A stretch of DNA of 64,000 nucleotides from Gemmatimonadaceae bacterium (GCA_035638155.1 DASRAP010000433.1:4569-68568), one strand, 5' to 3'. Positions 1 to 59,342 are shown, numbered from the stretch's first letter. Notes: a model not told the origin generated them from the sequence alone. Numbers and translations are program-made.

Positions 1-725
1 CACGTGTCCATGCCGACGACGCCGTCGGGCTGTAGACCGTGATAGGCGATCTGGAACGCCTTGACCTTGGCGGCAGTCTTACTCCCGTACCAGCCGTCAT
101 CGTCGATGCCCACGACGCGCTGGACGCGCTTGACGTCTTCGCCCCGGCTCGGGATCGGCACGAGCCAGGACCACTTCAGCACGCGCGCGAGCGGATCGAA
201 GCCGTCGGGCATCTTTTCGCTGAGTGCGACCGCGGCGCGATTGACCGCCGAGCGGAGAGCCGCGTAGTGATGCGCGACGCGCTGCGCCTTGGTGGCGCCG
301 AAACCCCGATAGTAGTTGGTGTCGTAAAGGGCTTCGCTCACCGCATACAGATCGCCGGTTTTGGCAGCCTCGAGCACCGAGGGGCGCTTCACGTACATCA
401 CGCGCACGAGGTCGGCCCAGCCGACCTCGGGGGTTGCGTAGCGCCGGAAGCACACCTGATAGGGCACGTTCGTGCCGGTGTTGGTCGGGTTGGTGTCCGT
501 GTAGAGAAAGCTCGTTGCCGGATTGCAAGGTGGATTGCCAGCCTGGATCGCGCCGATGTTGTTCGAGCCCGCGCCGTCGCCGTGCCAGCCGGCGCCGTAA
601 TCGGTCTCGAGCCAGCCGACACCTTGGCAGGCTTGCAAAACCGCGCGCAGCGGCTCAGCCTGGACGCCGAAGTTTTTTTCGTAGCCGCGCGTGGTGTAGA
701 GGCGCGCGTCTTTGTGCGTCGTCAT
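1..725 (-). CDS. Peptidoglycan hydrolase (endolysin-like); C-terminus runs off window start
   Basis: ATG at 725-723 behind AAGGAGG. My translation is stop-free to position 1; the ORF is absent from the track because it has no stop in the window. LETDYGAGW..NNIGAIQ..CFRRYATPEVGWADLVRVMY looks FlgJ/GH73-like. C-terminal VQRVVGIDDDGWYGSKTAAKVKAFQIAYHGLQPDGVVG fits PG_binding_1. Confidence 0.75.
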   Translation of the reverse strand, partial: MTTHKDARLYTTRGYEKNFGVQAEPLRAVLQACQGVGWLETDYGAGWHGDGAGSNNIGAIQAGNPPCNPATSFLYTDTNPTNTGTNVPYQVCFRRYATPEVGWADLVRVMYVKRPSVLEAAKTGDLYAVSEALYDTNYYRGFGATKAQRVAHHYAALRSAVNRAAVALSEKMPDGFDPLARVLKWSWLVPIPSRGEDVKRVQRVVGIDDDGWYGSKTAAKVKAFQIAYHGLQPDGVVGMDT

Positions 726-861
726 CGAGCCCTCCTTGCCATTTGCCAAAACAGCGCGATGAAGCCCACGACCAAAACGGCACCGATGAAGGTCAAGCGC
801 TCAGAGCGCGGCAGCCGATCGAATGGCAAGCCCAGCGTCATCGGTTTTTCCCAGCGGAGTA

Positions 862-1113
862 TCATCCTCCGATTGGCTTCATTTGCAGCCACTCACCCGC
901 GGCTTTCTTGTTCGCTATCTCGAAAGAAGCCGCCTCGAAGGCGCGCACCCAAACGGCCGGATCAGTGACCTTGCCGCTGGTCAGCGCGAAGTCGAGCGCG
1001 CTCTGAAGGATCGGCATGATCGTGTCGGCGACGAGCGGCTCCTGCTCGGCGAGGATCAACAAGCGATTGACCAGGCCGAGGTAGTTTTCCGGAATGGGGA
1101 CGGGGACGTTCAT
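862..1113 (-). CDS. Hypothetical protein (83 aa)
   Basis: Internal ATG of track ORF 862..1263 (MNVPVPIPENYLGL..). GGTGAGGTG SD-like leader. ATGA overlap with the stop of 1110..1301. Confidence 0.55.
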   Translation of the reverse strand: MNVPVPIPENYLGLVNRLLILAEQEPLVADTIMPILQSALDFALTSGKVTDPAVWVRAFEAASFEIANKKAAGEWLQMKPIGG

Positions 1114-1301
1114 TTTTGGCACCTCACCCACTGCTTGAGCCGGTCGTGAAACTCGGCGTCGATTTCCTTCTTGGCTTCGCAGCGGTCGTCTTGCCCGTGG
1201 CACTTTTCGGCGAGGCTTGCGTGATACCAGGCGCCGACCGCGGCCATGTCTTCCACCGAGCACGCTTCATTGTGGACCGAAGCGCACGCCGAAGCGGCCA
1301 T
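1110..1301 (-). CDS. Small Cys/His-rich protein (63 aa)
   Basis: ATG 2 nt after the TAG of 1304..1594 (MAASACASVHNEACSVEDM..). The stop overlaps the next start (ATGA). The rest of track ORF 1110..1601 overlaps the ASCH gene in another frame. Confidence 0.5.
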   Translation of the reverse strand: MAASACASVHNEACSVEDMAAVGAWYHASLAEKCHGQDDRCEAKKEIDAEFHDRLKQWVRCQK

Positions 1302-1303
1302 CG

Positions 1304-1594
1304 CTAGGAGCCCGATGAGGGCATGCGCACGCGATCGGTTAGAATTTTTATCTTTACCTGGACAGCTACGAAGCCGACACGGAGACCGACGTGCGGATCG
1401 CCGATCATATAGGTCACTTGGACGTAGCAGGTCGGACCCGTGTACTCGCCCGCGTCCGCTGACCATTCCCGCAGCTTCAGGATGTCGCCGAGGAGAATCG
1501 GAGGTTGCGCTTCGCAGATCAGAAAGTGGAGACGCTTCTCGGCGATCGCCCGGTAGGTGGGGATGTGGAGTTTGATTTCGCGAAAACCGCTCAT
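1304..1594 (-). CDS. ASCH-superfamily (DUF3850-like) protein
   Basis: REIKLHIPTYRAIAEKRLHFLICEAQPPILLGDILKLREW..GEYTG..VQVTY resembles DUF3850/ASCH small beta-barrel proteins. ATGA overlap with 1591..2283. Confidence 0.6.
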   Translation of the reverse strand: MSGFREIKLHIPTYRAIAEKRLHFLICEAQPPILLGDILKLREWSADAGEYTGPTCYVQVTYMIGDPHVGLRVGFVAVQVKIKILTDRVRMPSSGS

Positions 1595-2283
1595 GCTGCA
1601 CGACTCACCACTTTCGTTAGCACGTAGATCGCGCCCGCCACCAAGGCCACCAATCCGATCGCTGCGCCCGCACTGGCCCCCTGGGCAACACCGCCAGATC
1701 CGCCGCCACTCGGCATCGGCTCGTTCCGCGCTTTGGTGATCGCCTGGAGGTTCTTGGTCATGGCGGCAATGTGTTTGCTCAGCGCGAGCTCGAAGTAGTG
1801 CGACTCGCGGAGCGTCTTCGAGAAATTCGCGATGTCGCCCATGTTGGCCGCCGCGAGCACCTTCGGACGCTGCTTGTAGAGTACCTGGATGAAGTGCGTG
1901 AATCCCTCATCGGGCGAAGCGTACTTGCGAAAGCATGCCTGGTAGGCTGTGCTTCCATGCTCGGGACCGCGATGGTCGGTGGCCTCGAAGCAGCTGCTCG
2001 AGCAGGGCGGCAGACCGCACTGCACCGCGCCCATGTTCCAGGTGTTGCAAGTGGTCGTGCCAGCGGGGATGTTTTTGTAGCAGGCTTGTCCGTAGTAGGA
2101 CTCGCCGCGCGAAACGGCTTGCGCGAATTGGGCCTCTAGTAACGTCGGCGTTCGGCCGAAAACGACCTTGAACGCGTTTTCGATGAAGGTGCGGGCGGAA
2201 ACGTCGCTTATTTGTGCCGCACCGAGGCCGACTTGGCGCGCGCCAAGCACTCTCACTTCACCGAGCCAAAGAAGCTTCGACAT
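1591..2283 (-). CDS. Membrane-anchored peptidoglycan hydrolase, paralogue of 1..725
   Basis: GESYYG..WNMGAVQ..CFRKYASPDEGFTHFIQVLY parallels the catalytic region of 1..725. C-terminal TM AAIGLVALVAGAIYVL. N-terminal MSKLLWLGEV tag. Confidence 0.65.
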   Translation of the reverse strand: MSKLLWLGEVRVLGARQVGLGAAQISDVSARTFIENAFKVVFGRTPTLLEAQFAQAVSRGESYYGQACYKNIPAGTTTCNTWNMGAVQCGLPPCSSSCFEATDHRGPEHGSTAYQACFRKYASPDEGFTHFIQVLYKQRPKVLAAANMGDIANFSKTLRESHYFELALSKHIAAMTKNLQAITKARNEPMPSGGGSGGVAQGASAGAAIGLVALVAGAIYVLTKVVSRAA

Positions 2284-3932
2284 TAGCGCCGACGCTTTCT
2301 GCCGCGGGCTCGTCGCTTGTGCGCGCGTTGGGCGGAGCGCTGCACTTTCGGCGAGCGATAGCCCAGTCGCACTACGCGCTCATGGGGCGCTGGACCTTGC
2401 GGCAAATCGCGGATTCCTGCCTCGGTCGGTCCGCGCCGCAGTCGCCGCGACACCATTGTGGCTGCCGCATCTTGAGAAGGCGCTCCGCTGACTCGATAAA
2501 CGGTTCCGTCATGGTTGTCATAGACGTAATACACGCCAGGCGGCGTCTGTGGAGATTCGGCTTCGTCCAGTGGCGTCTTCTTGAACCAACCGGACCAGAA
2601 GGCGTTCTCGTTGCTCGGATTCGAACGTGCCGCTGGCCGCTTCGGCGTGGCCGCTGTAGCACCGCTACTTCCGCCACCGAATATCGCCGCGCCGAGACCG
2701 AGGAGCGCGAGCGCCCCGACCGCAATCAGGATGCCAGTGTTTCCGCCACTTTCCGAGCTCGAAGGCGTTCCCCCGCCCGGGATCGGAGTCGGAGGGATCG
2801 GCAGGGGCGTCACGACGCAGAGCTTGCTCACCGGATCCCAATGGAAGCCGGGATCGCACTGCGTGACGTCGCTCGGATTTCCCGGAACGGGAGTCGGCAC
2901 GCGCGGAAGCGGCACTTGCGGAGTCGGCGCCGACGGAACCGGAGCGGATGGCGCCGGCGCGCTCGGAAATCCGGGGTTCGGGAGCTGTCCGGGGACGATC
3001 GTGATGCCCTTGGCCTGCGCCCAGACTTTCAACGAGTAAAGGCCCTGGGTCGTCAGGTCTTGCCACGCGATTTCGTTTTTCGTGGTGGGATTCGGGAGCG
3101 GTGGCGCCCATCCGGATTTGTTCCACCAGTTGTAAAAGTTCGCGAGGGTCCAGCCGTCGCGATCGCCCCAGACGAGCGAAATGTCGGCCGGCTGAAGACC
3201 ATAGCTGCCGATCGAATTGTTTCCGTCGGTTCCGTTCCATGCGGCGAGAATCGCCTTGGCCATCGCGACGTCGGCGTCGGGAAGAGCGCCGAGATCGCCG
3301 GGACCTTGGATGGTCACGGGAGGCCGATAGCGCGAGGTCGATGGAAAGATCGGAGCGATCGTTGTGAGAGGCTGGCGATATCCCGGGGGAGTTGGCATCG
3401 GTGCCGGGAGAGTGGGCAGGTAGGGAGGAATGCACCCGAAGCTGCCGTCGTCATGGACGATCTTCGAGTAGCCCGGAGGGCACGTGGTTTTGATTTGGGT
3501 GCCGGTGCTCAGAACTTCGTTGAGACTCTTCGAGACAGGGTCATAGCAATAGTAGTTAGCATTCCCACTGCCGGCGCTTTTGCTGAAATCGAAGGGTTCG
3601 AAGTTGGCGCCTTTCGGCACGAATTCGAGCGCGCACACCTTGAGCGGCTTCGATGTTTTCTTGGACCATTGCTCATAGAGCGCGCGCATGCGCTGTACGG
3701 CGACCCAGCGCAAAACCGTGTTGAAGGTGATTCCGCTCTGAAGTGGGAAATCTTCATGCACATAGTCATCGCCACCCGGGAGCGGGAAGACGGGGAATGG
3801 AGCCGCTGCGTTGAAAACGTAAATCTTCCACGCACCGCTCGTGTTCCACCACTGCCACTCGGCTGGCGTCATGCCGAGCTGCCCCGGCGCGCCGAGCACT
3901 TGGACCTTTTCTTCTAGCCATCGCATCGACAT
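2283..3932 (-). CDS. TM-anchored late protein with polybasic C-terminus (549 aa)
   Basis: MSMRWLEEKVQVLGA tag and Pro-rich linkers. Domain AWNGTDGNNSIGSYGLQPAD..FYNWWNK is shared with 3939..4559. TM GILIAVGALALLGLGAAIF. Tail AHKRRARGRKRRR. TAATG coupling to the next gene. Confidence 0.7.
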   Translation of the reverse strand: MSMRWLEEKVQVLGAPGQLGMTPAEWQWWNTSGAWKIYVFNAAAPFPVFPLPGGDDYVHEDFPLQSGITFNTVLRWVAVQRMRALYEQWSKKTSKPLKVCALEFVPKGANFEPFDFSKSAGSGNANYYCYDPVSKSLNEVLSTGTQIKTTCPPGYSKIVHDDGSFGCIPPYLPTLPAPMPTPPGYRQPLTTIAPIFPSTSRYRPPVTIQGPGDLGALPDADVAMAKAILAAWNGTDGNNSIGSYGLQPADISLVWGDRDGWTLANFYNWWNKSGWAPPLPNPTTKNEIAWQDLTTQGLYSLKVWAQAKGITIVPGQLPNPGFPSAPAPSAPVPSAPTPQVPLPRVPTPVPGNPSDVTQCDPGFHWDPVSKLCVVTPLPIPPTPIPGGGTPSSSESGGNTGILIAVGALALLGLGAAIFGGGSSGATAATPKRPAARSNPSNENAFWSGWFKKTPLDEAESPQTPPGVYYVYDNHDGTVYRVSGAPSQDAAATMVSRRLRRGPTEAGIRDLPQGPAPHERVVRLGYRSPKVQRSAQRAHKRRARGRKRRR

Positions 3933-3938
3933 GGAACA

Positions 3939-4559
3939 TCACCTCAAGAGCAGGGCAGCAAGACCGAGCACCGCGCCGACGATCGCAAGGACGCCCACCG
4001 CCCCAATGCCCTCCGAGCTCGGCGCTGACGTGATCGGCGCGGGCGGCGCCGGTAGGGGCGTCTGATTCGTCGGAACCGGAACCGGGATCGGTACGGGCAC
4101 CGGAACTGGTTGAGGTTGCGTGCGCGGACCGCAGGCCGCGAGACAGGTCGCGAGATTCGCGAGATCGCCCGCGTACTTCTGTTGACACGCAAGCGCGCAG
4201 TTGACGGATGGCGCCGGAACTTGGCCGGGATTGATGACGCCCTTTTCCACGCCCCATTGCAGAAGCGCCTGGAGATGCTCGGGCTTCAGATCGATCCAGG
4301 TGTACGAGCCGGGCGCGGGGAAGACCGCGGGCTGCTTGTTGTTGGCCTTCCACCAATTGGCGAAGCAGGCGAGCGCGTTTCCATCGCGCGTTTTCCACGT
4401 GGTCGGATCGACGTCGTCCGGCTCGAGGCCGTAGCCGGTGACGCAATTGTTGCCGTCGGTTGCCACGAACGAAGCGAGCAACGCCTTGGCTTGCGCGTTC
4501 GAGGGCGCGTCGAGAGCACCCAAGAAGTCGACTTTCTTTTCTAGCCAGCGCATGCCCAT
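3939..4559 (-). CDS. C-terminally TM-anchored paralogue of 2283..3932 (206 aa)
   Basis: MGMRWLEKKVDFLGA tag. FVATDGNNCVTGYGLEPDD..FANWWKANNK repeats the domain of the neighbouring gene. PVPVPVPIPVPVP linker. C-terminal TM GAVGVLAIVGAVLGLAALLL. Confidence 0.7.
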   Translation of the reverse strand: MGMRWLEKKVDFLGALDAPSNAQAKALLASFVATDGNNCVTGYGLEPDDVDPTTWKTRDGNALACFANWWKANNKQPAVFPAPGSYTWIDLKPEHLQALLQWGVEKGVINPGQVPAPSVNCALACQQKYAGDLANLATCLAACGPRTQPQPVPVPVPIPVPVPTNQTPLPAPPAPITSAPSSEGIGAVGVLAIVGAVLGLAALLLR

Positions 4560-4562
4560 GAC

Positions 4563-5141
4563 TCACCTCGAGAGAAAGAATGCCGCGAGGCCGATCACGA
4601 TACCCGCGATCGCGAGCGCCACGCCGGTGCCGCCGCCGGACGCCGCGGGCGTCGTAGAGCTCGCGGGCGGCGTCGTCGTGCCACCACCGCCGCCAGATCC
4701 GGGACGGGGGATTTTCTTACCGCCGGGCGTGCCTTGCGTCGTGGGACCGAAGCCGCACTTCTGGCCGCACTGAATCGCGGCGGCTTTGAGCGCCGCTTCG
4801 TCGGTGCCTACCGCTTCTTGCTGGAAGGCGTCCATACATGCGTTGAAGCACGGGCTCACCTTTGCGCCGACCTTCTGCATTTGCTCGTGGTCGACCAAGA
4901 TCCCCGCGCCGCACGCTTCGGTCATGCACTGGTTCACGCACGGCCAAATCAGAAGTCCGCCCCAGCCGCCGATGCCGATCGCGGTGCAGATCGCGTAGCA
5001 GGCGTCCTGGTTATAGAGGTTTGCCTGGCACGCGGAAGTGGTCGGCTCGGTGAAAAGTCCGACGCCAACAGGCGCAGCAAGGCGGCCGTTCCAGCGAACT
5101 GAGGAACGCGGGCCGACCTGGCCGCGCCAAGCTACGATCAC
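4563..5141 (-). CDS. Cys-rich C-terminally TM-anchored protein (192 aa)
   Basis: GTG at 5141 in GTGA overlap with the stop of 5138..5509. (M)IVAWRGQVGPRSSVRWNGRL parallels MIQSWSGQVALRPNGRL. 10 Cys. TM VALAIAGIVIGLAAFFL. Confidence 0.6.
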   Translation of the reverse strand: MIVAWRGQVGPRSSVRWNGRLAAPVGVGLFTEPTTSACQANLYNQDACYAICTAIGIGGWGGLLIWPCVNQCMTEACGAGILVDHEQMQKVGAKVSPCFNACMDAFQQEAVGTDEAALKAAAIQCGQKCGFGPTTQGTPGGKKIPRPGSGGGGGTTTPPASSTTPAASGGGTGVALAIAGIVIGLAAFFLSR

Positions 5142-5509
5142 GGGTTTGCTCTCATGTGCCCGCGTCCGCCCGCGAACATGATCGCCGCGGCGACCGCGAG
5201 CGCTCCGCCGAGCAACCACACGATCACAGGGACGCCCGCCGTCGCCGACGAGCTCGCGGGCGCGGGGGCCGGCGCGGGAGTCGGGGTCGGCGTCGGCGCG
5301 GGGACCGGAATGCCGGCGTTGATGACTTCGCCGATTTTAGCGGGGAGCTCCGCCGGGGTGAGGCCGCACGCCTTGAGGCACGGCTCGATGCACGTGAGGA
5401 ACGGGCGAGCGTTGGCGCACGATTGCGCGCAAAGCGCCTCGCAGTTCGAGAGGGCGCCGAGGCGCCCGTTCGGGCGGAGGGCGACTTGTCCTGACCAGGA
5501 TTGGATCAC
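5138..5509 (-). CDS. Cys-rich C-terminally TM-anchored protein (123 aa), paralogue of 4563..5141
   Basis: GTG start in GTGA overlap with the upstream stop. 6 Cys. PAPTPTPTPAPAPAP linker. TM VPVIVWLLGGALAVAAAIMF. Confidence 0.65.
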   Translation of the reverse strand: MIQSWSGQVALRPNGRLGALSNCEALCAQSCANARPFLTCIEPCLKACGLTPAELPAKIGEVINAGIPVPAPTPTPTPAPAPAPASSSATAGVPVIVWLLGGALAVAAAIMFAGGRGHMRANP

Positions 5510-6717
5510 GCTGCCGCCCTTCTACGCTTCGGGGCCGAGCGCCGACGCTTTTGCGAACGAGCTCGCGCCGCGCGCGCGGGCTGCTTCGGGAGGTTCGGGG
5601 CACGCATGCCCAAGAAGATCGCGCCGATGGCCGCGCCGATGCCGAGTAGCCAACCCCATCCGGAGCCGCCACCGATCCCGGCGGTGGTTGCCGTGGATTC
5701 GCAAGATCCGTCAGCTGCGCGCTTGTAACCCGTCGGGCACTTGTCGACGCACGATCCGGACACGCACTCCTTGGTCGGATCGGTGCACGGCGTTGCGGGC
5801 GTGCACTCCGGAGCGGGCGGCGGAGGAGCACCACCGCCGCTTCCCGCTGCGGCTTCGCACTCGTTCAGTTGCTGTTGGATTTGGTTGACCTGCGCTTGCG
5901 CTGCGTTTCGCGCTGACACTTGTCCGGCATATTGCGCGTCGAGAGCTTGGCCGGTGGCCGTGTCTCCGTTTTGATACGCCGCGATGCGCGCGGCATCGAG
6001 GTCGACGATGTAGCTCTTGATTCCCGCCAGTTTTGCCTTAGCGGCCTGCAACTGAGCATTTAGCGCGTCGCACGCTTCGTTTTGCCCGAGCCGCCCCTCG
6101 CCCGGACCGAACAAGAACGGAACCGGCGGGCGCGTGATGCGCGTCTGAAATTGCGTGGTCGTGACGGTCGTTCCGCCGAACGGCTGAGTCCCGAACGGGC
6201 TCAGCGGGATGCTTCGCCGAAAGAACGACGTGAACGGGAACGGATAGACGAACGGGATCGGATTGGGCGGAGGCGGCTGGTAGTTTCCGATCGTCGTCTT
6301 GACGCCGTCGTAGGTGCAGTACGAGACCGGCTGCATCAGGATGTTGGTCTTGGTGTACGAGCCGCACACGGCCTTGTATTTCCAGACCGGAGTGGCGCCC
6401 GGTGGAATGCCGCCCGGCTGCCACGAGTTGAACGCCTGCGTGATGCCCGCGTAGCCCTGCGCGTGCGTTCGCAGATGCGGCCCGCTGGTGCCGACGAGCT
6501 GGCCGTTGTTGTAAAAGTAGTAGGTCCAGTACTCGAGCTCGTAAGGCGCACCGACGCCTTCCTTCGGTCCGAGCAACTGCTGAGGCCCGCCGGCTCCGCC
6601 GCGATCGTGCAAGAACACCGGCCGGAGATTCGGCGGCATCACCGCGCTGCCGAAGTACGCTCGCGCGCTCGGTCCGGTTTGCGTCTTCACCGGGTCAATC
6701 CATTTCACGAGCGCCAT
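5506..6717 (-). CDS. Beta-rich + coiled-coil + Cys-cluster protein with C-terminal TM and polybasic tail (403 aa)
   Basis: Start moved to ATG 6717 (MALVKWIDPV), a 1-nt TGATG overlap with the upstream stop. Ala/Gln heptad-like stretch. TM WGWLLGIGAAIGAIFLG. Tail RSQKRRRSAPKRRR. Confidence 0.7.
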   Translation of the reverse strand: MALVKWIDPVKTQTGPSARAYFGSAVMPPNLRPVFLHDRGGAGGPQQLLGPKEGVGAPYELEYWTYYFYNNGQLVGTSGPHLRTHAQGYAGITQAFNSWQPGGIPPGATPVWKYKAVCGSYTKTNILMQPVSYCTYDGVKTTIGNYQPPPPNPIPFVYPFPFTSFFRRSIPLSPFGTQPFGGTTVTTTQFQTRITRPPVPFLFGPGEGRLGQNEACDALNAQLQAAKAKLAGIKSYIVDLDAARIAAYQNGDTATGQALDAQYAGQVSARNAAQAQVNQIQQQLNECEAAAGSGGGAPPPPAPECTPATPCTDPTKECVSGSCVDKCPTGYKRAADGSCESTATTAGIGGGSGWGWLLGIGAAIGAIFLGMRAPNLPKQPARAARARSQKRRRSAPKRRRAAA

Positions 6718-13137: not shown

Positions 13138-13147
13138 CGCTCGCCCT

Positions 13148-42081: not shown

Positions 42082-42096
42082 TGGAACCACGAAACG

Positions 42097-44640: not shown

Positions 44641-44642
44641 AC

Positions 44643-46354: not shown

Positions 46355-46359
46355 CGCCC

Positions 46360-47077: not shown

Positions 47078-47090
47078 TAAACTTTTTTCC

Positions 47091-49516: not shown

Positions 49517-49520
49517 GTGC

Positions 49521-49805
49521 TCAACTCCCTTTCCAAAACCAGTACGCCAATCCTACCAGCACCGCGACCACTCCGATCGCCGCGGGCGATAGGCCCGCGC
49601 CCGAAGTCTTCGGGGAGGCCGAAGGGTTGGGCGATGGAGAAAGACCAGAGGCAGGGAGGGGGGAAGAGCCGGTCGTGCCCATGAAGTCGGGCGGAAGAAT
49701 CACGCTCTTCGCACATTGTCCTACCGCAGCGAGATTGCCGGAGCTCGAGAGTACTCGCCGCCCCTGCCGCGGAACGATCGCTTGGATTGGGTGAAAACCC
49801 AACAT
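49521..49805 (-). CDS. C-terminally TM-anchored small protein (94 aa)
   Basis: Ser/Pro-rich linker, then AAIGVVAVLVGLAYWFW. Confidence 0.5.
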   Translation of the reverse strand: MLGFHPIQAIVPRQGRRVLSSSGNLAAVGQCAKSVILPPDFMGTTGSSPLPASGLSPSPNPSASPKTSGAGLSPAAIGVVAVLVGLAYWFWKGS

Positions 49806-49806
49806 T

Positions 49807-50580: not shown

Positions 50581-50591
50581 CGAAGAGAAGG

Positions 50592-52433: not shown

Positions 52434-52448
52434 GGCCGCGTCAGCCTA

Positions 52449-53222: not shown

Positions 53223-53223
53223 G

Positions 53224-53672
53224 TCAATCCACGGTGCAAACGAGAGCACCGATCGCGAACGATGGGGTGATGCCGGGGTTTATGACGAGCGAGGCCGTCA
53301 GCGCGCCGTACCAGAGCATTTCACCCGCGCCGCTCGTGTCGCGGCCGACGTTGAAGTGCGTCATGGTCTGCGGGCCGCTTCCCGCCGACGCGTAGGTGAT
53401 TGCGGCGACGTTTGCCGACTGCGTCGGGGCCGTGCCCGACACAGTCCAGCCGCCCGCCGAGCGCGCCACGGGCACGCGGGCGTAGTTGGTCCAGGTCGCT
53501 TCGTTGGTGAGCTGGGTGCCGGTTTCGCCCGGGTCGGCGGTTTGAAGCCCTATGAAGAACGATCCGGCCGTGGTGCTTCGCGGAGCCCCGTGGCATCGCC
53601 GAGGTTTGCCCAGTTGGTGTTGTTGAAGATCAACAACATCAGGTCGTTCTCGGCGGCGTTTCCTAAGCTCAT
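53224..53672 (-). CDS. Fibre-module protein interrupted by a -1 frame change at a G4 run (~149 aa if joined)
   Basis: Frame 1 from ATG 53672 (ATGA-coupled) reads MSLGNAAENDLMLLIFNNTNWANLGDATG and stops 11 codons later. The continuation APRSTTAGSFFIGLQTADPGETG..YARVPV..FAIGALVCTVD is in the -1 frame. The switch point is CCCC at 53586-53589 (plus strand). Confidence 0.5.
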
Positions 53673-53956
53673 GATTTGGCTCCCAGGTCAGCTTCACGAA
53701 CGAGCCTGTCGACTTCGGCCCAGAGATCCTTCCCATGTTTCTTCTGCCGGTAATGCACGTCGTCCGGATCTTCGCCACTGGCGGCGGGAGGGGTCGGCAA
53801 CTGTGCATGGAGCGCCTCGAACACCTTGGTGCGCGTGGCGCGCACGAGCGCCTCTTCTAGCGGCAGGTCGCCATGGACGCGGCGATCGCGCTCGTGCTTC
53901 ATGATCTCGGCCTGATAGAGAGATTGGACGTCCGCCTCGGTGAGGGTGTGCTTCAT
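53669..53956 (-). CDS. Hypothetical protein (95 aa)
   Basis: Internal ATG 53956 (MKHTLTEADVQSLYQAEIMK..) in ATGA overlap with the upstream stop. Confidence 0.55.
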   Translation of the reverse strand: MKHTLTEADVQSLYQAEIMKHERDRRVHGDLPLEEALVRATRTKVFEALHAQLPTPPAASGEDPDDVHYRQKKHGKDLWAEVDRLVREADLGAKS

Positions 53957-54207
53957 TTGGGGTGCCTCTTCATTTCTCCGAGCACGAAGGCCGCAACGTC
54001 CTTCATGTCGACTCGGCCGTCCTTGGTTTGGCACTTCTCCATGGCTTCGGTGAGAAGCCTCGAAAGCGCGTCGATCGCAGTCGTGTCTTCCACGATCTGG
54101 TCGAGACGCTCGACCGCGGATTTGCCATACAACAGGCGCATCCGCTGGCGCAGACCCGGCGTCGGGCGGGCGACTCCGGAGAGCACGCCGTTGTCAACGA
54201 CTTTCAT
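53953..54207 (-). CDS. Hypothetical protein (84 aa)
   Basis: MKVVDNGVLSGVARPTPGLRQRMRLL... Confidence 0.55.
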   Translation of the reverse strand: MKVVDNGVLSGVARPTPGLRQRMRLLYGKSAVERLDQIVEDTTAIDALSRLLTEAMEKCQTKDGRVDMKDVAAFVLGEMKRHPK

Positions 54208-54264
54208 CGCCCCAAGAGTAGCCCCATTTCAGTCCGCGTAGCACGCGGTAATCGGGCTAACCGC

Positions 54265-54645
54265 TCAGCAGCGCTCGATTTTGAAGTCCATGACGATGCC
54301 GCCGGCAGTCGGCGCCGCGAAGGCTACCTGAAATCCAATGGTCGCCTTGGCGGGGATCGCGAATTGCTGCAAGTTGCCCCCGAGCATGGTGCCGATCACG
54401 ATGTAGTTGGTGTCGGGTTGCACGCAGCCCTCGGGGAACGGCACGAACTGACTCACCTGTCCGTTGGCGATCGGAACGTGTAGGAGACAGCAGCCGCCCG
54501 CCGCGGGCGCGTCATCGCCACCCAGATTGCCGCCACCTAAGCCAGCGACCGCTTGAGCCAAACGCATGAGAGCTCGGCCTAGCGGCGATCCAAGCTGCAC
54601 TTGGCTGCCCACATTTTTGACGATGTCTTCGATTGCTGTTGCCAT
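54265..54645 (-). CDS. Spike/fibre protein 2: shared N-terminal adaptor, short head (126 aa)
   Basis: MATAIEDIVKNVGSQVQLGSPLGRALMRL adaptor motif. Confidence 0.6.
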   Translation of the reverse strand: MATAIEDIVKNVGSQVQLGSPLGRALMRLAQAVAGLGGGNLGGDDAPAAGGCCLLHVPIANGQVSQFVPFPEGCVQPDTNYIVIGTMLGGNLQQFAIPAKATIGFQVAFAAPTAGGIVMDFKIERC

Positions 54646-54660
54646 GATTTGTCTCCCTTA

Positions 54661-54960
54661 CTACTTCACCGGCACCGCGACGACCAGCGCGAGAGCGCCG
54701 TCCGGATCGTCGTAGGCGAATTTTGGGGTGTCCGAGGGGTCTTCGGGATCTCGCGGCAACTCGCGGCGCGCGGCGTTCCAGCCGTCATCGGTGTAAGCGC
54801 GGCACTCGCCGGTCGCGTCGATCAGATGCGTGTGAAGGCTTCCCCTGTAGCCGAGCTCGGCGGCCGCGGCATGCAGGATGTCACTCACGTCGTCGCCATC
54901 GAACACGTTCGGGGGGTACGTTTTTCCAACGACTGTGATCGCGTAGGCCATGGGTTTCAC
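54661..54960 (-). CDS. Hypothetical protein (99 aa)
   Basis: ..MAYAITVVGKTYPPNVFDGDDVSDILH... ATGA overlap with the fibre 3 stop. Confidence 0.55.
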   Translation of the reverse strand: MKPMAYAITVVGKTYPPNVFDGDDVSDILHAAAAELGYRGSLHTHLIDATGECRAYTDDGWNAARRELPRDPEDPSDTPKFAYDDPDGALALVVAVPVK

Positions 54961-56624
54961 CAGTATCCGTACATGTGGATAAAATCCATTTGGTTATTGG
55001 TGGCGCCCTTCGAGCTCTGCACGCAGGTCGGACGAAGGTTGGTGGTGTTGAGCGGCAGCGTCGCGGAAATGTCTGCGTCGTGCACGACGGTGTTGGTAGA
55101 ACGATTGATCAGCGTCGTGTGGATCTTGGTGTCATTGGGGAGCGCCCACATCTGCACCTCGAACACGCAGGGTCCGGCCGTGTTTGGGTCGCCGGTCACG
55201 AGCGAAGCTTTGGTGATGATTGCGGCCGACTTGGTGCTCCCACCGACGTTGTCAGTGCTGATGACGGTGATGTTGGCGTCTCCGGTGTCGGCTCCATAGA
55301 CGACCCGGTTACCGCTCGCGCTCGGGTTGGCACCTCCGGCGATCACGGCGTTGTTGATGCCGATGGAAATGATCGAGTCGGTTTGGATGACCGCGACCGC
55401 GAAGCGGAAGCAAACGAAGAACCCACCCACTCCCGCGACGGCACCGCGGCACATGCCGGGGTCGGTGAAGTTTTGGCCGACGAGAATGTTGGCCGTCGAG
55501 GTCGTGGTGTTGTTGCGCGGGCTCGAGGTGCGGAGATCGGTGTTGGTCGGCGAAACGGTCGTCACGCCGGTCAGGGCGTTCGTGGTGAGACCGAGACTGT
55601 CTTGCAGACCGCCGTTGCTGCGCGGGATCACGTAACGAAAAGAACGCGACAGGACCGCGGTGCCCACTAACGCTTGAGGGATGCGAGCGAAAGAGGCGGT
55701 GGAAGCTCCTGCCTGGAGCGCCGCCGACACCTGCACGTCGTCGGCGTTGACGACGACGGAGCCATCGGCGTTTTGGCCGACGTCAAAGGTGCGATTGGCG
55801 GAGAGGTCGCCGCCGCCTGTCAGACCCGCTCCAGCTGTCAGCGTGCGCGCGGGTTGCACGCTGGTCGCTCCGAGCGCGGCTCCCGATTGGATCGCGGCGG
55901 ACACCTGCACGTCGTTGGCGTTTACGACTACCGAGCCGTCAGCATTTTGGCCGACGTTGAAGGTGCGATCGGCGGAGAGGTCGCCGCCGCCCGTCAGGCC
56001 CGCGCCAGCCGTCAGCGTGCGCGTGTTCGGGACGGAGAAGGCTACGAGAGAGTCGAGTGCGGCCTTGTCGGCCGCGCTCATGAAGCCCGCGACGAGGTTG
56101 GTGGCTATTGCGTGGAGGGCGCCGCCAGAAAGGTTTCCGTGGTTTGCGTCAGCGATGACGCCCACACGGATGTCGTCCGCGCCGACGATGATCGTGCCGT
56201 CGGCGGCGACGATGTTAAACGTGCGATCTGCCGAGAGCTCGCCGCCGCCGGTCATGCCCGCGCCGGCCGTCAAGGTGCGTGTGACCGGAACGTACGGACC
56301 ACCCGCGACCAGCGCATCGAGCTGTGCCTTGTCGAGGGCAGACATGAAGCCAGCGACCAGCGGCGTCGCCAGATCGTGGAGCGTGCCGCCCGGAAGATTT
56401 CCGTGCGCGTGGACGTGATCCGCGCGCGACGCAAAGAACGAGTTCCCTCCGGACCCGACGACCCCAACGGGCATCGCGGAGTTTCCGAACGGAGTCGCTC
56501 CGCCCGCAGCGATGATGCCCGCGTCGGCGAGACGCGAAATCAGTTGCATCCACACGCCGAGCGGCGACGACAGTTGGATCTGTCCGCTCGTGGCCTTCAG
56601 AACGTCTTCGACTAACCCGGACAT
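54957..56624 (-). CDS. Spike/fibre protein 3 with phage-fibre repeats (555 aa)
   Basis: MSGLVEDVLKATSGQIQLSSPLGVWMQL adaptor. Three RTLTAGAG(L/M)TGGG(D/E)LSA(D/N)RTF repeats. Two HGNL.GG.LH..AT.LVAGFMSA.DKA.LD motifs, common in phage tail-fibre proteins. Confidence 0.75.
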   Translation of the reverse strand: MSGLVEDVLKATSGQIQLSSPLGVWMQLISRLADAGIIAAGGATPFGNSAMPVGVVGSGGNSFFASRADHVHAHGNLPGGTLHDLATPLVAGFMSALDKAQLDALVAGGPYVPVTRTLTAGAGMTGGGELSADRTFNIVAADGTIIVGADDIRVGVIADANHGNLSGGALHAIATNLVAGFMSAADKAALDSLVAFSVPNTRTLTAGAGLTGGGDLSADRTFNVGQNADGSVVVNANDVQVSAAIQSGAALGATSVQPARTLTAGAGLTGGGDLSANRTFDVGQNADGSVVVNADDVQVSAALQAGASTASFARIPQALVGTAVLSRSFRYVIPRSNGGLQDSLGLTTNALTGVTTVSPTNTDLRTSSPRNNTTTSTANILVGQNFTDPGMCRGAVAGVGGFFVCFRFAVAVIQTDSIISIGINNAVIAGGANPSASGNRVVYGADTGDANITVISTDNVGGSTKSAAIITKASLVTGDPNTAGPCVFEVQMWALPNDTKIHTTLINRSTNTVVHDADISATLPLNTTNLRPTCVQSSKGATNNQMDFIHMYGYW

Positions 56625-56626
56625 GG

Positions 56627-58285
56627 TTATGCGAACGCTACAATCATCGCGCCGTTGCCAGTGCCGACAGTCACGCCGTCGTAGCCGTTCATGTACGGGA
56701 TCTGCGCCCAGGTGCGCGCAGTTCCGCCGACGTTCGCGTCGGTCGCTCCGGTGACCGTAGGTTTGGTCGTATACATCGTCTTGCCGCCAGAGCGCACGCG
56801 CATGCCGACTCCAGTCGAACCCGTTCCCCAGATCAGATCGTTGCCGCTAAAGAGTGCTGCGGCTCGCACGTTACCGTCTTCGATGAGGAGTCCATCGGCG
56901 CCAGCATCGAACACCGCCATCGTTGCGACACGCAGCACGCCGTTGTAGCGCACGCGGATACCGTCATTACCGCTCTGGCTAAATAGCGTGTCGTAGTCGA
57001 CGAAAAGGGTTGCCCCCGATTGCACCGACGGCCGTCCGCGCACGAGGCACGCGAAGAACGAGGTCGAGCTCGGCGCCGCTGCGATCACGACACCCGTGTC
57101 GATGAAGCACGTGCACAGGTTTGCATTGAAGGGCGGGTGCATGCGGCAGCCGTAGGCTACTGGCGCATTCGTGACCGTGCCGATCGGCAGCATCGAGATC
57201 GGGATGTCGCTCTGGGTCAGGTAGACGTTCTGGAGGACAACCTGCGTGCCGTTCACGCTGGCGGCGCCGCCGTACTGCGCACTGATGTTATTGAGCGTGA
57301 GGTAGCCGATCGTCGTCAGGCTCTCGACTACGAACGTGTTTCCGGCCGCGACGTTGACGGGCGTCGGCGTGAAGGGCAGCGGGTTTGCCGCGAAGGACAT
57401 CGTTGTCCATGGGCTCGTGCGGTACACGCCTCCGCCGAAGTCTCGATCCAACCACGCGATGGCGCCGGTGCTAGCGCCGCTCGTTGCGCGAATGCGCTGG
57501 CCGGTGCGGCCGGCGCCGAGGCCCGCCTCGGTGATCGCGCTCGCGGTTTGGGTGGCGCGGTTCAGGTTCGTGACGGCGGAGAAGCCTCCGCCTGGCGACG
57601 TGTAGATCGTCGTCGCAACACCGGTGATGCGGAGTACGCCCGCTGACCCGAGGATGAAGTTGAAGATGCACGGGTCGGTCGCGGGGACGTTGTTGAGATA
57701 GGTGACGGTGGTGTCGGCGACGATGTTCCAGATCGTTCCGACGCGACGCTGACGTTCAGCGTCGTGCTGGATTGCAGTGCCCGCAGTGAGCCCGTCGTTC
57801 GCATCACTTCCTGCGACTGGATCGATAAACCAAGCCGTCTGGGCTCGCGAAGCTACGTTGCCTACGCCGAGAGCTGGGTTTATTTGCAGGTCGTTCGCGT
57901 TGACAAGGAGCGTTGCGTCAGCATTTGCGACAACATCGAATGTTCGGTTGGCGGAGAGATCGCCACCGCCGGTTAGACCGGCGCCGGCTGTGAGCGTGCG
58001 CGTGGGCTGCACAGCAGTCGCGCCAGCCGCGGAACCCGCCTGAATGGTCGGGTTCACTCGAATGTTGTCGCCGTTGACGATGATGGAGTTGTCGGGGTTT
58101 TGGCCGACCGCCAACTGCGTTCCATTGGGCACGAGCCCCGGGCCGGCGAGCGCGTTCACTTCACCGGCGGCGATCGAGACTATTTCATCAACACCTTGCG
58201 AAACCGCGAGAATCCACCGCCCGTGGCGACTCGCAAGCTGGAGTTCGCTTGCGAGGGACTTCGCTATATCGAGTATATTTCCCAT
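56627..58285 (-). CDS. Spike/fibre protein 4 with beta-helix-like (depolymerase-like) C-terminal part (552 aa)
   Basis: MGNILDIAKSLASELQLASRHGRW adaptor. One RTLTAGAGLTGGGDLSANRTFDV repeat. The C-terminal ~400 aa show Gly/Val/Thr/Asn periodicity, e.g. GIRVRYNGVLRVATMAVFDAGADGLLIEDGNV. Confidence 0.7.
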   Translation of the reverse strand: MGNILDIAKSLASELQLASRHGRWILAVSQGVDEIVSIAAGEVNALAGPGLVPNGTQLAVGQNPDNSIIVNGDNIRVNPTIQAGSAAGATAVQPTRTLTAGAGLTGGGDLSANRTFDVVANADATLLVNANDLQINPALGVGNVASRAQTAWFIDPVAGSDANDGLTAGTAIQHDAERQRRVGTIWNIVADTTVTYLNNVPATDPCIFNFILGSAGVLRITGVATTIYTSPGGGFSAVTNLNRATQTASAITEAGLGAGRTGQRIRATSGASTGAIAWLDRDFGGGVYRTSPWTTMSFAANPLPFTPTPVNVAAGNTFVVESLTTIGYLTLNNISAQYGGAASVNGTQVVLQNVYLTQSDIPISMLPIGTVTNAPVAYGCRMHPPFNANLCTCFIDTGVVIAAAPSSTSFFACLVRGRPSVQSGATLFVDYDTLFSQSGNDGIRVRYNGVLRVATMAVFDAGADGLLIEDGNVRAAALFSGNDLIWGTGSTGVGMRVRSGGKTMYTTKPTVTGATDANVGGTARTWAQIPYMNGYDGVTVGTGNGAMIVAFA

Positions 58286-58289
58286 GGCT

Positions 58290-58916
58290 TTAGCCCTGGG
58301 AACTTTGCACGATCGCGCCGACCGCTAACCCTCCGACTACGGCTCCGACCGGACCGGCCACGAGCGCGCCGACTGCGGCTCCCGCGGCGGCTCCGATGAG
58401 CGTCGCCGTGCTGAGACCACCCTTGCTCGAGGCGACCGGAGTAATCGCTCCGCCGCCCGCCCCCGAACCAAGCCGGGGCTTCAAGACTGCCCATGCGGAG
58501 TTTTGCTGAGCGAGCGTTTGCGCCGCTGCGCGACTTCCGACGACGAGCAAGTGGTAGAGCTCGCCGGGCTGGCCCTGCATCAACTTCAACGTGTCGTTGA
58601 TGTCTGCGAGCGTGATCTGATCGGCCGGCAACTCTTGGAGCTGTTGCGCGGCGGTTGGCAAGCCCTCGAGCTGGATGCCTTGCTGGTTCAGGGCTTGCGG
58701 AGTGACGGCGATGTAGCCGGTGGCTCCCGCGACGCCCGTGTTCTGGGGATCGAGAACCACATAGCGGTTTTGCAAAAACAACATGACGTTGTTTGCAGCG
58801 TCCGCGCCGAGCTCCTGGACACCATCACTCGCGATCGATCCGATCGATGGCGCGGGCGCGTCTTGCGACAAGCGGCCTTGGCCGCGGGGTGCGGCCAGAT
58901 TCTGATACAAGTGCAT
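58290..58916 (-). CDS. Protein with C-terminal Gly-zipper membrane anchor (208 aa)
   Basis: C-terminus is LIGAAAGAAVGALVAGPVGAVVGGLAVGAIV. Confidence 0.6.
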   Translation of the reverse strand: MHLYQNLAAPRGQGRLSQDAPAPSIGSIASDGVQELGADAANNVMLFLQNRYVVLDPQNTGVAGATGYIAVTPQALNQQGIQLEGLPTAAQQLQELPADQITLADINDTLKLMQGQPGELYHLLVVGSRAAAQTLAQQNSAWAVLKPRLGSGAGGGAITPVASSKGGLSTATLIGAAAGAAVGALVAGPVGAVVGGLAVGAIVQSSQG

Positions 58917-58928
58917 GGTTTGGTCCTC

Positions 58929-59342
58929 TTAGTTCGGGGGCGCGGGAGTCGCGGTCTCTGGCTTCGGACTTTCGATCGGATCGTCGTTTTGGACGATGAC
59001 GATCGAAGACGAGGCACGCTTTTGATATTCGGTCGATTCGAGAAAAGCTCGAACCGCTGCGCGCATGAAGACGAGAGACACCACAACTCCCACGGTCGAC
59101 ACCAAACCGAGCGCGTAAACCGAGTGGACGACTGAAATCGCCGATACGAACGCGAGCACGAGCAGGAAGAGCCCAATCACCGCGCCGGCCGTGAACGCGA
59201 TCGCAAGCTCGGTGCGTCGCTTCAATTGGCCGTGGCTGAAAGCAGCTCGGAGGCTTTGCCCCTGCTCATCACGAATCGACTGAAGCCAATTATCCGCTTG
59301 ATCACCGGGGGCTGTTTTGGCTTGCAGACTGGCGCTTTTCAT
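58929..59342 (-). CDS. Two-TM membrane protein (137 aa)
   Basis: LAIAFTAGAVIGLFLLVLAFV and LGLVSTVGVVVSLVFM. Confidence 0.6.
   Translation of the reverse strand: MKSASLQAKTAPGDQADNWLQSIRDEQGQSLRAAFSHGQLKRRTELAIAFTAGAVIGLFLLVLAFVSAISVVHSVYALGLVSTVGVVVSLVFMRAAVRAFLESTEYQKRASSSIVIVQNDDPIESPKPETATPAPPN

Follow-up and report, generated by a model that had tools for sequence, protein, structure and literature searches.

Gene content of a circular 73.5-kb genome

Lysis, membrane-protein, replication, fibre and glycan-modification genes lie in the window, the whole stretch of 64,000 nt of DNA that we analysed, and these 64 kb belong to a complete circular (or circularly permuted) dsDNA genome of 73,522 bp, of which the window is 87%. 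A 100%-identical Logan contig joins the start of the window (positions 197 to 1) to its end (64000 to 53219) across 9,522 nt, and the ends of that contig lie at window position ~27,990, where the window itself runs unbroken. Other, independent assemblies measured 73,536, 73,644 and 73,663 bp; the genome of a 95%-identical strain is longer, at 77.6 kb. The initial annotation had described a region spanning ~59 kb or more, with unseen flanks and ending at 59,342; the sequence runs on through 64,000 and the 9,522 nt back to position 1, so that 59,342 is no boundary, and the element is a free circle, not a prophage with missing flanks. Features are listed below by coordinates and strand.

3..749, minus: g1, endolysin with a glucosaminidase-like N-terminal part and PG_binding_1 (PF01471, E 2e-8; PHROG endolysin families)
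1591..2283, minus: g5, second glucosaminidase-like wall hydrolase (PF01832, E 3.5e-6, below the curated cut-off)
2283..6717, minus: g6-g10, five membrane proteins, each with an ectodomain, a Pro-rich linker and a single TM segment (hydropathy)
6717..7607, minus: g11, conserved TM-free protein of 296 aa, candidate vertex or second/third capsid protein
7622..8335, minus: g12, TM-free beta-sandwich (jelly-roll-like) protein of 237 aa, candidate minor or second capsid protein
8377..9561, minus: g13, 394-aa candidate major capsid protein with a predicted jelly-roll-type beta fold, not HK97
9664..11514, minus: g14, 616 aa, candidate membrane-anchored DNA-condensing core protein
11526..14140, minus: g15, g16 and g17, core module; g15 soluble (195 aa), g16 and g17 with two TM segments each
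14160..14906, minus: g18, homologue of the SSIP-1 structural protein gp34
15923..17818, minus: g21, 631-aa Pro/Gln/Gly/Tyr-rich low-complexity and coiled-coil protein, scaffold or matrix candidate
19237..20766, minus: g24, candidate HUH (rolling-circle) replication initiator (PF23343, E 0.002, below cut-off)
22933..32142, minus: early/replication block, named genes and small ORFs (Pfam and PHROG matches)
22933..24099, minus: C5-methyltransferase (Pfam E 3e-38)
27764..28438, minus: DUF3560 protein
29252..29689, minus: RadC
29867..30538, minus: beta-clamp-like protein
31489..32142, minus: HNH endonuclease
32363..48146, plus: block of about 35 small genes
34213..35118 and 47531..47896, plus: NUDIX (PF00293)
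45078..46172, plus: tyrosine integrase (PF00589, PF02899, E 3e-11; PHROG integrase)
48333..59225, minus: host-recognition block, with fibre/spike, Gp80-like, repeat plus gp34-like, and TM proteins
48938..49516, minus: g84, fibre/spike with the shared N-terminal anchor motif
50592..52433, minus: g86, repeat, gp34-like domain (against gp34, HMM E 1.5e-10) and TM segment
53224..53697, minus: g88, Gp80-like (PF23140 Gp80, E 2e-16)
54265..54645, minus: g91, fibre/spike with the shared motif
54957..56624, minus: g93, fibre/spike with the shared motif and PHROG tail-protein repeats
56627..58285, minus: g94, fibre/spike with the shared motif
59374..64000, both strands: glycan-modification island (precomputed Pfam hits on L056)
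59374..60369, plus: GDP-mannose-dehydratase-type epimerase
61042..61938, plus: FkbM methyltransferase
61904..63178, minus: methyltransferase
63219..63719, minus: 166-aa protein
63720..64000, minus: C-terminal end only of a 1039-aa multi-domain glycosyltransferase

The region encodes about 102 genes at 87% coding density, consistent with its initial description as virus-like; IMG/VR lists the element among viral genomes, and a virome data set includes it as a vOTU. Genes shorter than 150 aa number 62, and 60 of 97 same-strand neighbours lie no more than 15 nt apart (39 of these 60 overlap), so the earlier count of over 80 stop-start-coupled small ORFs was too high. Scans for tRNAs, Rfam families, tandem repeats and inverted repeats found no tRNA, RNA family, att site or origin signature, and 50 kb of the window had no megablast match among 50,697 phage records.

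The lysins, integrase-like gene and C5-methyltransferase of the initial annotation were all recovered. The first lysin, g1, is cut at its 3′ end by the window start and is complete as a 257-aa protein in L054/L056, the second, g5, carries a C-terminal membrane anchor (hydrophobic segment at residue 202), and the 9.5-kb gap encodes an SLT-like protein. Of the HNH/EndoVII nucleases, the HNH gene stood and no EndoVII was found. The proposed rolling-circle Rep, g24, keeps two motifs (HVHIHIW at residue 321 and IKYLTKD at residue 421), but its Pfam match is sub-threshold and it has no homologue among phages or plasmids (tblastn) or in the PDB.

Fibres are present as claimed, though at least five proteins are of fibre type and not four. 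An N-terminal anchor motif of ~30 aa is common to g84, g91, g93 and g94. A g93 motif also occurs in 40 unrelated IMG/VR contigs; g95 and g96, in the same block, are TM proteins. The glycan-modification island belongs to the virus because it is contiguous with the rest of the circle. The 9.5-kb gap adds two further glycosyltransferases, and a relative (L060) also encodes a glycosyltransferase and an FkbM methyltransferase.

Tailed-phage hallmarks and packaging genes

Pfam and PHROG searches of the full gene set (window and gap) recovered no terminase, portal, HK97 capsid or tail gene and no tape-measure, tube, sheath or baseplate family; the only matches of this kind were fibre-type domains (PF23140 and the g93 repeats). 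The lack of tailed-phage hallmarks first noted in the window thus holds for the complete genome, and a terminase-portal-tail module adjoining the window is excluded. No unassigned ORF is of terminase or portal length, and every ORF of at least 400 aa has an assignment (membrane protein, fibre, Rep, methyltransferase or glycosyltransferase). A motif scan of the 73.5-kb genome found no P-loop protein or conserved Walker A motif, and none of nine relatives has a P-loop protein within 10 kb of its capsid genes; an FtsK/HerA-type packaging ATPase, sought beyond the window following the initial annotation, is therefore absent from the whole genome and from the relatives' capsid modules. Rejected candidates were the single PHROG 'portal' match, which sits on a NUDIX domain; GQITAGKS in g13, considered as a P-loop, which is not kept across the g13 family; and a 625-aa ORF from the related strain's gap region, a high-GC artefact whose Arg-rich nonsense frame is overlapped by better-scoring genes.

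If the element were a tailed phage with genes for HK97 capsid, terminase, portal and tail that had diverged beyond recognition, this would account for fibres that match PHROG 'tail protein' families and a podophage GP4 fibre domain, and for a g93 repeat motif common to many IMG/VR contigs. We nevertheless regard this as very improbable, as the complete genome offers no candidate for such genes, the P-loop motif is wholly absent, and Pfam and PHROGs normally recover terminase large subunits, yet recovered none. The structural model of g13 likewise has no HK97 protein among its neighbours in BFVD or the PDB, libraries that hold thousands of them, and the g12 model retrieved none either.

A conserved module of soluble and membrane proteins

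The module g10-g18, in which membrane proteins are interleaved with three soluble proteins, is kept in nine diverged metagenomic relatives (31–61% identity, contigs of 20–97 kb). The three consecutive TM-free ORFs of the initial annotation, g13, g12 and g11, lie exactly where they had been placed. The gene for g13 has the highest per-length codon-usage score in the window, and its AlphaFold (AF2) model is beta-rich (pLDDT 77, pTM 0.75). In BFVD, the best Foldseek match of this model was I1ZBH9 (E 6e-4, prob 0.99), which we take to be gp46 of the tail-less phage SSIP-1, judging from consecutive accessions and protein lengths (211 and 256 aa), and SSIP-1 gp47 was also listed (prob 0.51). Against the PDB, the top of the list consisted entirely of jelly-roll capsid proteins, none significant or reaching E 0.1, among them PR772 P3 (E 0.25, prob 0.16; chains of 379 and 392 residues matched) and VP4 of SPV1 (6oj0_A). 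The structure check of the 394-aa protein thus points away from HK97 and towards jelly-roll capsid proteins, with fold matches that are all marginal (TM-scores 0.26–0.42, best E 6e-4).

The model of g12 (pLDDT 84.5, pTM 0.79) has small beta-sandwich and jelly-roll proteins as Foldseek neighbours, including bromovirus coat proteins and the SPV1 capsid protein VP4 (prob 0.85, E 5e-3), none at E ≤ 1e-3, and it matches neither gp46 nor gp47. Neither model retrieved the capsid proteins of P23-77, HHIV-2 or SH1. At the sequence level, the g13 family comprises 147 clusters at 50% identity in metagenomes, with no Pfam family in a scan of 82 diverse members, no PDB sequence match and no similarity to gp46 or gp47 by hhalign, also when a gp46 homologue was added. 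Homologues of g12 form 81 clusters, and orthologues of g11 occur at 36–47% identity in six relatives (L007, L008, L010-L012 and L040), with no Pfam, PDB or phage match. Paralogy among the three families was not detectable by hhalign. Searches with g13, g12, g11, g15 and g17 against phage records (tblastn) gave nothing significant, and sequence and profile searches of the PDB with g13, g12, g11, g18 and the Rep gave nothing meaningful, the g18 matches being designed coiled coils.

The protein g14 combines an N-terminal protamine-like Arg/Lys domain of ~200 aa (36% R+K; net charge of the protein +61) with membrane segments and a Cys-rich C-terminal domain, and its gene is always directly upstream of that for g13. 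Four full-length orthologues keep the basic composition (34–40% R+K) in a region that is itself not alignable. A LysM-like stretch seen by eye in the C-terminal part had no Pfam support even at E 5. Among g6-g10, which have no Pfam or PHROG match, g6 and g10 bear Arg/Lys-rich tails, g8 and g9 are Cys-rich, and g6/g7 and g10 are kept in relatives. Orthologues of g15, g16 and g17 were found in three to four relatives apiece, with no family, PDB or phage match. For g21, which has an 18-nt tandem repeat at 17133-17252, the scaffold or matrix assignment is suggested by composition and a weak orthologue in L011.

SSIP-1 is the only characterised relative of this genome, and a link independent of the g13 fold match runs through g18 (tblastn E 9e-10; HMM against gp34, E 5e-9), for which SSIP-1 was the only match among the 50,697 phage records (E 5e-5, 87% coverage). 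The invariant columns of g18 (DCD...H...DP) contain a Cys-His-Asp set that, by eye, looks transglutaminase- or cysteine-protease-like.

Hydropathy indicates about 13–16 late proteins with hydrophobic anchors, in agreement with the initial annotation. Their Cys-rich ectodomains lack signal peptides and their basic tails follow the TM segment, a puzzling topology, equally compatible with an inner membrane and with an outer envelope. One alternative is a virus of enveloped or pleomorphic type, or an element of the plasmid-vesicle type, that would wrap its genome in host-derived membrane without an icosahedral outer shell, with the DNA coated by the basic domains of g14, g6, g10 and g86, Cys-/Pro-rich ectodomains and fibres facing outward, and g13, g12 and g11 as matrix or nucleocapsid proteins. 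The ectodomain-linker-TM-basic-tail layout of about 15 anchored proteins, the missing packaging ATPase, ectodomain cysteines that suggest an extracytoplasmic location and the weakness of the g13 and g12 fold matches are all in keeping with such a particle. We nonetheless consider it unlikely, given that codon usage within the module is most optimised in the gene for a soluble, jelly-roll-like protein whose best structural match is a structural protein from an icosahedral phage, that g18 is homologous to an SSIP-1 virion protein, that the fibres are without anchors and have in common a docking motif suited to a protein vertex, and that three lysins imply lytic release and not budding.

The host is possibly a member of the Gemmatimonadaceae, judging from metagenomic binning, which placed a near-identical contig in a MAG of that family. 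Scans of 185,579 species-representative genomes found no relative of g13 or of g12, and hence gave neither a prophage copy nor a direct link to a host. Binning with a MAG would also suit a non-viral circular plasmid or mobile element that carries phage-like fibre, lysin and surface-glycan genes, as would the circular topology, integrase, Rep-like gene, methyltransferase and sugar-modification island. Such an element is nevertheless highly unlikely: conjugation, partition and NTPase genes of any kind are missing, the Rep has no plasmid homologue, a syntenic and codon-optimised structural module is kept across nine diverged relatives, lysins occur together with multiple receptor-binding fibres, and both IMG/VR and the virome data set list the element as viral.

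Proposed virion and comparison with known systems

Taken jointly, these observations are in our view best explained, with a probability of roughly 0.6, by an undescribed tail-less bacterial virus with a jelly-roll shell, a membrane and motor-free genome condensation; we infer both the tail-lessness and the membrane content of the virion. It would represent a lineage of tail-less bacterial viruses that is diverse in metagenomes and invisible to hallmark-gene classifiers. The icosahedral shell would be built of jelly-roll proteins, with g13 as the main component and with partner or vertex roles for g12 and perhaps g11, over a lipid membrane holding about 15 virus-encoded anchored proteins. The absence of a packaging ATPase, together with the fusion of a protamine-like domain to membrane segments in g14, suggests ATPase-independent condensation: instead of being pumped in by a motor, the DNA may be condensed on the basic domain of membrane-anchored g14 and on the basic tails of g6, g10 and g86, and assembly would then enclose it, as happens in archaeal SPV1. 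At least five fibres would dock through the shared ~30-aa N-terminal adaptor and set host range, while g1, g5, the SLT-like protein of the gap and gp34-like g18 may act as virion-associated or late wall hydrolases in entry and lysis. Replication would be started by the HUH-type Rep with host polymerases, and the glycosyltransferase/methyltransferase island may decorate virion proteins or the host surface.

A bolder reading, which we hold tentatively and think somewhat doubtful, is that of a bacterial counterpart of the portoglobovirus design, a lineage of family rank or higher that has no packaging NTPase and condenses its genome on g14. If true, no tail-less phage would be known with a larger genome, the virus would offer a second, independent motor-free route to filling a large icosahedral capsid, and motor-free enclosure of a large dsDNA genome in an icosahedral particle would become testable in a bacterial system. 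SSIP-1 gains its first identifiable relatives, and the size range of tail-less phages would extend to 73.5 kb, while the contigs of relatives reach 97 kb. For the biology of host range and surface modification, the shared-adaptor fibres and the glycosylation island carried by the virus offer secondary leads.

Tail-less membrane-containing phages comprise a handful of isolates, mostly with 10–15-kb genomes. The initial annotation had likened the element to PRD1- and PM2-type membrane phages, with which it would share the tail-less, membrane-containing concept and late genes with many small membrane proteins; g13 (394 aa) has about the length of a PRD1-type P3, and PM2 uses a rolling-circle Rep, for which g24 is the candidate here. 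The likeness to membrane phages stands inasmuch as the sole characterised relative is tail-less with an internal membrane, but PRD1/PM2-type phages are defined by an FtsK/HerA-type packaging ATPase, and the present genome, which has none, is by this test not of their type. It is also five to seven times larger and shows no sequence similarity to genes of tectiviruses or corticoviruses. The comparison with 10–15-kb genomes had also overlooked SH1 and HHIV-2 (about 30 kb) and SSIP-1, a 44-kb (43.8 kb), T=49, tail-less icosahedral phage with an internal membrane and two capsid proteins.

To our knowledge, SSIP-1 has until now stood alone as an orphan. Both genomes are circular dsDNA, large for a tail-less phage and almost wholly orphan in gene set, and both have a gp34-like gene upstream of the capsid-protein genes and a structural block with many small membrane proteins; gp46 as the most likely best structural neighbour of g13 adds to the resemblance. 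SSIP-1-like viruses have two adjacent genes for major capsid proteins with single vertical jelly rolls; here g13 and g12 are adjacent and both model as jelly-roll-like sandwiches, of which g13 alone matches the presumed gp46 and gp47. They differ in size (43.8 kb against 73.5 kb), in their capsid proteins (211 and 256 aa for gp46/gp47 against 394 aa for g13, without profile-level similarity), in host (halophilic Salisaeta against perhaps Gemmatimonadaceae) and in having no shared genes beyond gp34-like g18 and the g86 domain, and SSIP-1 lacks an equivalent of protamine-like g14. SSIP-1 has a predicted packaging ATPase, gp40, with the Walker A motif GEKGSGKS, so in lacking one the present genome truly departs from its nearest relative.

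Packaging ATPases are also missing from SPV1 (Sulfolobus polyhedral virus 1, Portogloboviridae) and FLiP. SPV1, with its jelly-roll shell, inner membrane and nucleoprotein core, resembles the present virus in its circular dsDNA, in encoding a glycosyltransferase and a methyltransferase, and in the appearance of VP4 in the Foldseek lists of both g13 and g12; its jelly-roll outer shell, inner membrane and DNA core condensed by a basic protein are likened here to the virion proposed above. It differs in its archaeal hyperthermophilic host, 20-kb genome and non-lytic cycle, has no sequence similarity to our genome, and uses a small, soluble nucleoprotein as opposed to a membrane-anchored fusion, while lysins, fibres, Rep and integrase belong to the present virus. 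We therefore read the relation to SPV1 as one of functional analogy and not of membership in the Portogloboviridae.

Genome closure and gene content

Because raw ORF lists are untrustworthy at the G+C content of the window (60–67%), gene calling relied on a codon-usage model that was trained on this sequence itself. This gave 102 genes at a coding density of 87%, with the longest uncalled stretch at most 842 nt, while a scan of the 64 kb found no tRNA or Rfam RNA.

Layout of called genes in the window
1–18,172, minus strand: structural and lysis genes
19,237–32,142, minus strand: replication and early genes
32,363–48,146, plus strand: about 35 small genes
48,333–59,225, minus strand: fibre genes
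59,374–64,000: sugar-modification genes

The initial annotation had drawn the boundary of a virus-like element at 59,342, but the sequence runs on past this point. A Logan contig (L056; 73,536 bp, 100% identity to the window) matches both window ends, with its bases 1–197 corresponding to window 197–1 and its bases 9,720–20,501 to window 64,000–53,219, so that the ends are joined by a gap of 9,522 nt to give 73,522 bp in total. The termini of L056 fall at window ~27,986–27,999, where the window runs unbroken, and each assembly thus spans the other's break. This makes the element a closed circle of 73.5 kb. The same genome was also assembled at 73,644 and 73,663 bp, and a strain at 95% identity at 77,617 and 77,759 bp. 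Since no cellular genes flank the closed circle and a search of 185,579 species-representative genomes turned up no relative, the element is a free viral genome rather than a prophage fragment. In IMG/VR the 77.6-kb strain is catalogued among viral genomes, and one of the relatives carries the label 'DNA_vOTU_520'. The near-identical 73,663-bp contig, source of protein HYV99612.1 in the cluster of gene g12, was deposited within a 'Gemmatimonadaceae bacterium' MAG; it exemplifies a viral genome binned as cellular, and its deposition is the sole hint of a Gemmatimonadaceae host.

Searches with Pfam or PHROGs confirmed the integrase, HNH, C5-methyltransferase and lysin genes listed initially and matched RadC, two NUDIX genes, a beta-clamp-like protein and DUF3560. 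EndoVII, also on that list, was not found, and the count of stop-start-coupled small ORFs was too high as stated. The proposed RCR Rep (g24) retains a sub-threshold match to PF23343 and HUH- and Tyr-type motifs but has no homologue in phages, plasmids or the PDB, leaving a weakly supported candidate. The 9,522-nt gap encodes two glycosyltransferases, an SLT-like hydrolase, a fifth fibre protein, three membrane proteins and a few small genes. The lack of tailed-phage hallmarks reported for the window extends to the entire 73.5-kb genome, in which Pfam and PHROGs searches found no terminase, portal, HK97 capsid, tape measure, tube, sheath or baseplate, and every ORF of at least 400 aa was assigned as a membrane protein, fibre, Rep, methyltransferase or glycosyltransferase. 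That this is a tailed phage with hyper-divergent genes is very unlikely, as the genome is complete yet holds no candidates for them and the structure models of its capsid-region proteins are non-HK97.

Several other genes have unusual compositions. The NUDIX hydrolase g52 (34213–35118) is fused to a Cys-rich C-terminal region in the window; this type is kept in relatives (56% identity; L007 1525–2052, L061 295–822), where it adjoins the structural module, and the second NUDIX gene lies at 47531–47896. By eye, the small protein g64 (39605–40021) has DnaJ-like CxxCxGxG zinc-finger repeats, for which a family search gave nothing, and many small ORFs around it are also Cys-rich. Long Asp/Glu runs end the products of g23 (18407–19036) and g82 (47886–48146), and g23 is probably abundant, since its codon-usage score per length is among the highest in the genome. 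The 631-aa g21 (15923–17818) combines long tracts of GYPPQ type and of poly-Pro with a coiled coil at its centre, with an 18-nt tandem repeat (17133–17252) underlying part of it; could it be a scaffold or matrix protein?

A conserved structural module and its predicted folds

Homologues of g13 (8377–9561) group into 23 clusters at 90% identity and into 147 at 50%; these clusters are all unnamed, and a scan of 82 family members gave no Pfam domain. For g12 there are 81 homologue clusters. Nine diverged relatives on contigs of 20–97 kb share one gene order (g18, g16, g15, g14, g13, g12, g11, g10, then g6/g7-type membrane proteins, with g17 close by), so that the module consists of anchored proteins alternating with three soluble ones. 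The three soluble proteins singled out initially thus belong to a conserved, interleaved set. Relative to its length, g13 had a stronger codon-usage signal than any other gene of the window, which is what the most abundant virion protein should show. A plasmid is an unlikely identity for a circle with such a conserved and codon-optimised module, with lysins and fibres, and with no transfer or partition NTPase; a conserved Walker A motif is absent from all called genes.

The AlphaFold model of g13 (23-sequence alignment; pLDDT 77, pTM 0.75) is mostly beta. Against the PDB its best match was not significant (E = 0.12), and the top of the list, in which no match reached significance, comprised jelly-roll capsid proteins (papillomavirus L1, SPV1 VP4, nodavirus, PR772 P3 and polyomavirus VP1) and no HK97 proteins. 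Against BFVD, the sole match past E = 1e-3 was I1ZBH9 (211 aa; E = 6e-4, probability 0.99, target-normalised TM 0.42), with I1ZBI0 (256 aa; probability 0.51) lower in the list. We infer that these are gp46 (211 aa) and gp47 (256 aa), structural proteins encoded side by side in the orphan phage SSIP-1. The model of g12 (62 sequences; pLDDT 84.5, pTM 0.79) shows helices at the N terminus of a compact beta-sandwich, and its neighbours were small viral beta-sandwich proteins, the SPV1 capsid protein VP4 (probability 0.85) and coat proteins of bromoviruses, with no match at E ≤ 1e-3. The HK97 fold, named initially as the result that would point to a tailed prophage, did not appear in either model, and a jelly-roll capsid is favoured by these predictions though not proven.

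SSIP-1, a tail-less phage with an internal membrane, T=49 and two types of capsid protein, has a circular dsDNA genome of 44 kb and almost no database relatives. Its virion protein gp34 has sequence homologues here in g18 (14160–14906) and in one domain of g86 (pairwise E = 9e-10; family HMM 5e-9 and 1.5e-10), which share an invariant Cys/His/Asp set. Among 50,697 phage records SSIP-1 was the sole match to g18 (E = 5e-5, 87% coverage). Two unrelated tests, the fold match of g13 and the sequence match of g18, therefore indicate the same orphan phage. The relationship is distant: the genomes have no further proteins in common beyond the gp34 homology, and the g13 family has no profile similarity to gp46 or gp47. 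The 613-aa g86 (50592–52433) is a mosaic in which degenerate repeats of ~20 aa, rich in Ala/Gly/Ser/Thr and spanning ~370 aa, precede a Pro-rich linker; after this come the second copy of the gp34-like domain, a TM segment and finally an RRRRR tail. Its Pfam 'Zein' match is spurious and caused by the repeats.

Fibres, membrane-protein motifs and the glycan island

One N-terminal motif of ~30 residues (...[QE][LIV]QL[STGA]S..., as in MGLIRDALKAVGGQLQLSSPAGNW) begins five otherwise unrelated proteins and has the look of a docking adaptor shared by alternative, interchangeable receptor-binding fibres.

Proteins with the shared N-terminal motif
48938–49516: g84
54265–54645: g91
54957–56624: g93
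56627–58285: g94
L056 2238–2858: 206-aa protein of the gap

Residues ~40–240 of g93 carry a repeated fibre motif (TLTAGAGLTGGGDLSA.RTF.V) common to about 40 IMG/VR viral contigs. As these contigs lack the capsid module, L040 alone excepted, the repeat is an exchangeable fibre domain, which suggests that such domains are traded with other phages, probably tailed ones. Fibre cassettes also differ between the two 95%-identical strains. Around 2 kb of the 77.6-kb strain (L013 12366–14369) has no similarity to window ~52250–54262, which suggests a swapped fibre-block cassette, consistent with host-range diversification.

Six membrane-anchored structural proteins, all without a signal peptide, share an N-terminal M-x-x-[R/K]-W motif that may be a sorting or processing signal.

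Proteins with the M-x-x-[R/K]-W motif
2283–3932: g6
3939–4559: g7
5506–6717: g10
12113–12979: g16
L056 660–1184: gap protein
L056 1184–1999: gap protein

An enveloped or pleomorphic particle is the serious rival reading: among the anchored proteins in general, a layout of ectodomain, anchor and basic tail without signal peptides would fit an envelope as well as an inner membrane. On the genes and models, the balance tips toward a shell over an inner membrane because of the links to SSIP-1, the anchorless fibres and the soluble jelly-roll proteins.

The right-end genes encode a GDP-mannose-dehydratase-type epimerase, an FkbM methyltransferase, a second methyltransferase and the end of a 1039-aa glycosyltransferase; host-like as they appear, they are viral because they are contiguous with the closed circle. 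Together with L056 4600–10000, window 59374–64000 forms a glycan island of an epimerase/dehydratase, two methyltransferases (one FkbM-type) and three glycosyltransferases, of which the 1039-aa protein is a multi-domain enzyme. Pro/Ser/Thr-rich linkers of the membrane proteins could be its substrates. In relative L060, a glycosyltransferase and an FkbM methyltransferase lie near the capsid module.

Packaging and comparison with known systems

The central idea of the initial annotation, a tail-less virus, comes through the two checks proposed with it: the models show no HK97 fold, and the sequence outside the window holds no terminase-portal-tail module. Its filing as a PRD1/PM2-type phage fails on the missing packaging ATPase, whose location beside the capsid genes is part of the definition of PRD1-type and sphaerolipovirus-type viruses. 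P-loop proteins are missing from the whole 73.5-kb genome and, in the nine relatives, from the sequence within 10 kb of the capsid genes. The argument that the element is several-fold larger than known tail-less genomes had left SSIP-1 out of the comparison. Scaling up from SSIP-1 by volume of the genome would predict an angular shell about 110–125 nm across.

In every relative, g14 lies directly upstream of g13. Its first ~200 residues are 34–40% Arg+Lys in all four full-length orthologues, yet this region is not alignable; membrane segments and a Cys-rich domain follow, and the window g14 has a net charge of +61. Arg/Lys-rich tails also stand right after the membrane anchors of g6, g10 and g86. 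Given the absence of a P-loop protein, these basic proteins and the precedents of FLiP and SPV1, jelly-roll, membrane-containing viruses without packaging ATPases, we propose that DNA may be condensed on membrane-anchored basic domains and the particle assembled around it.

This virus is best described as a new and large version, lacking a packaging ATPase, of the tail-less phage design with jelly-roll proteins and a membrane. SSIP-1, its closest characterised relative, differs in having a packaging ATPase, gp40 (Walker A GEKGSGKS), to which this genome has no counterpart. The closest functional analogue is SPV1, whose nucleoprotein core lies inside a membrane and a shell of single-jelly-roll type and whose genes likewise include a glycosyltransferase and a methyltransferase.
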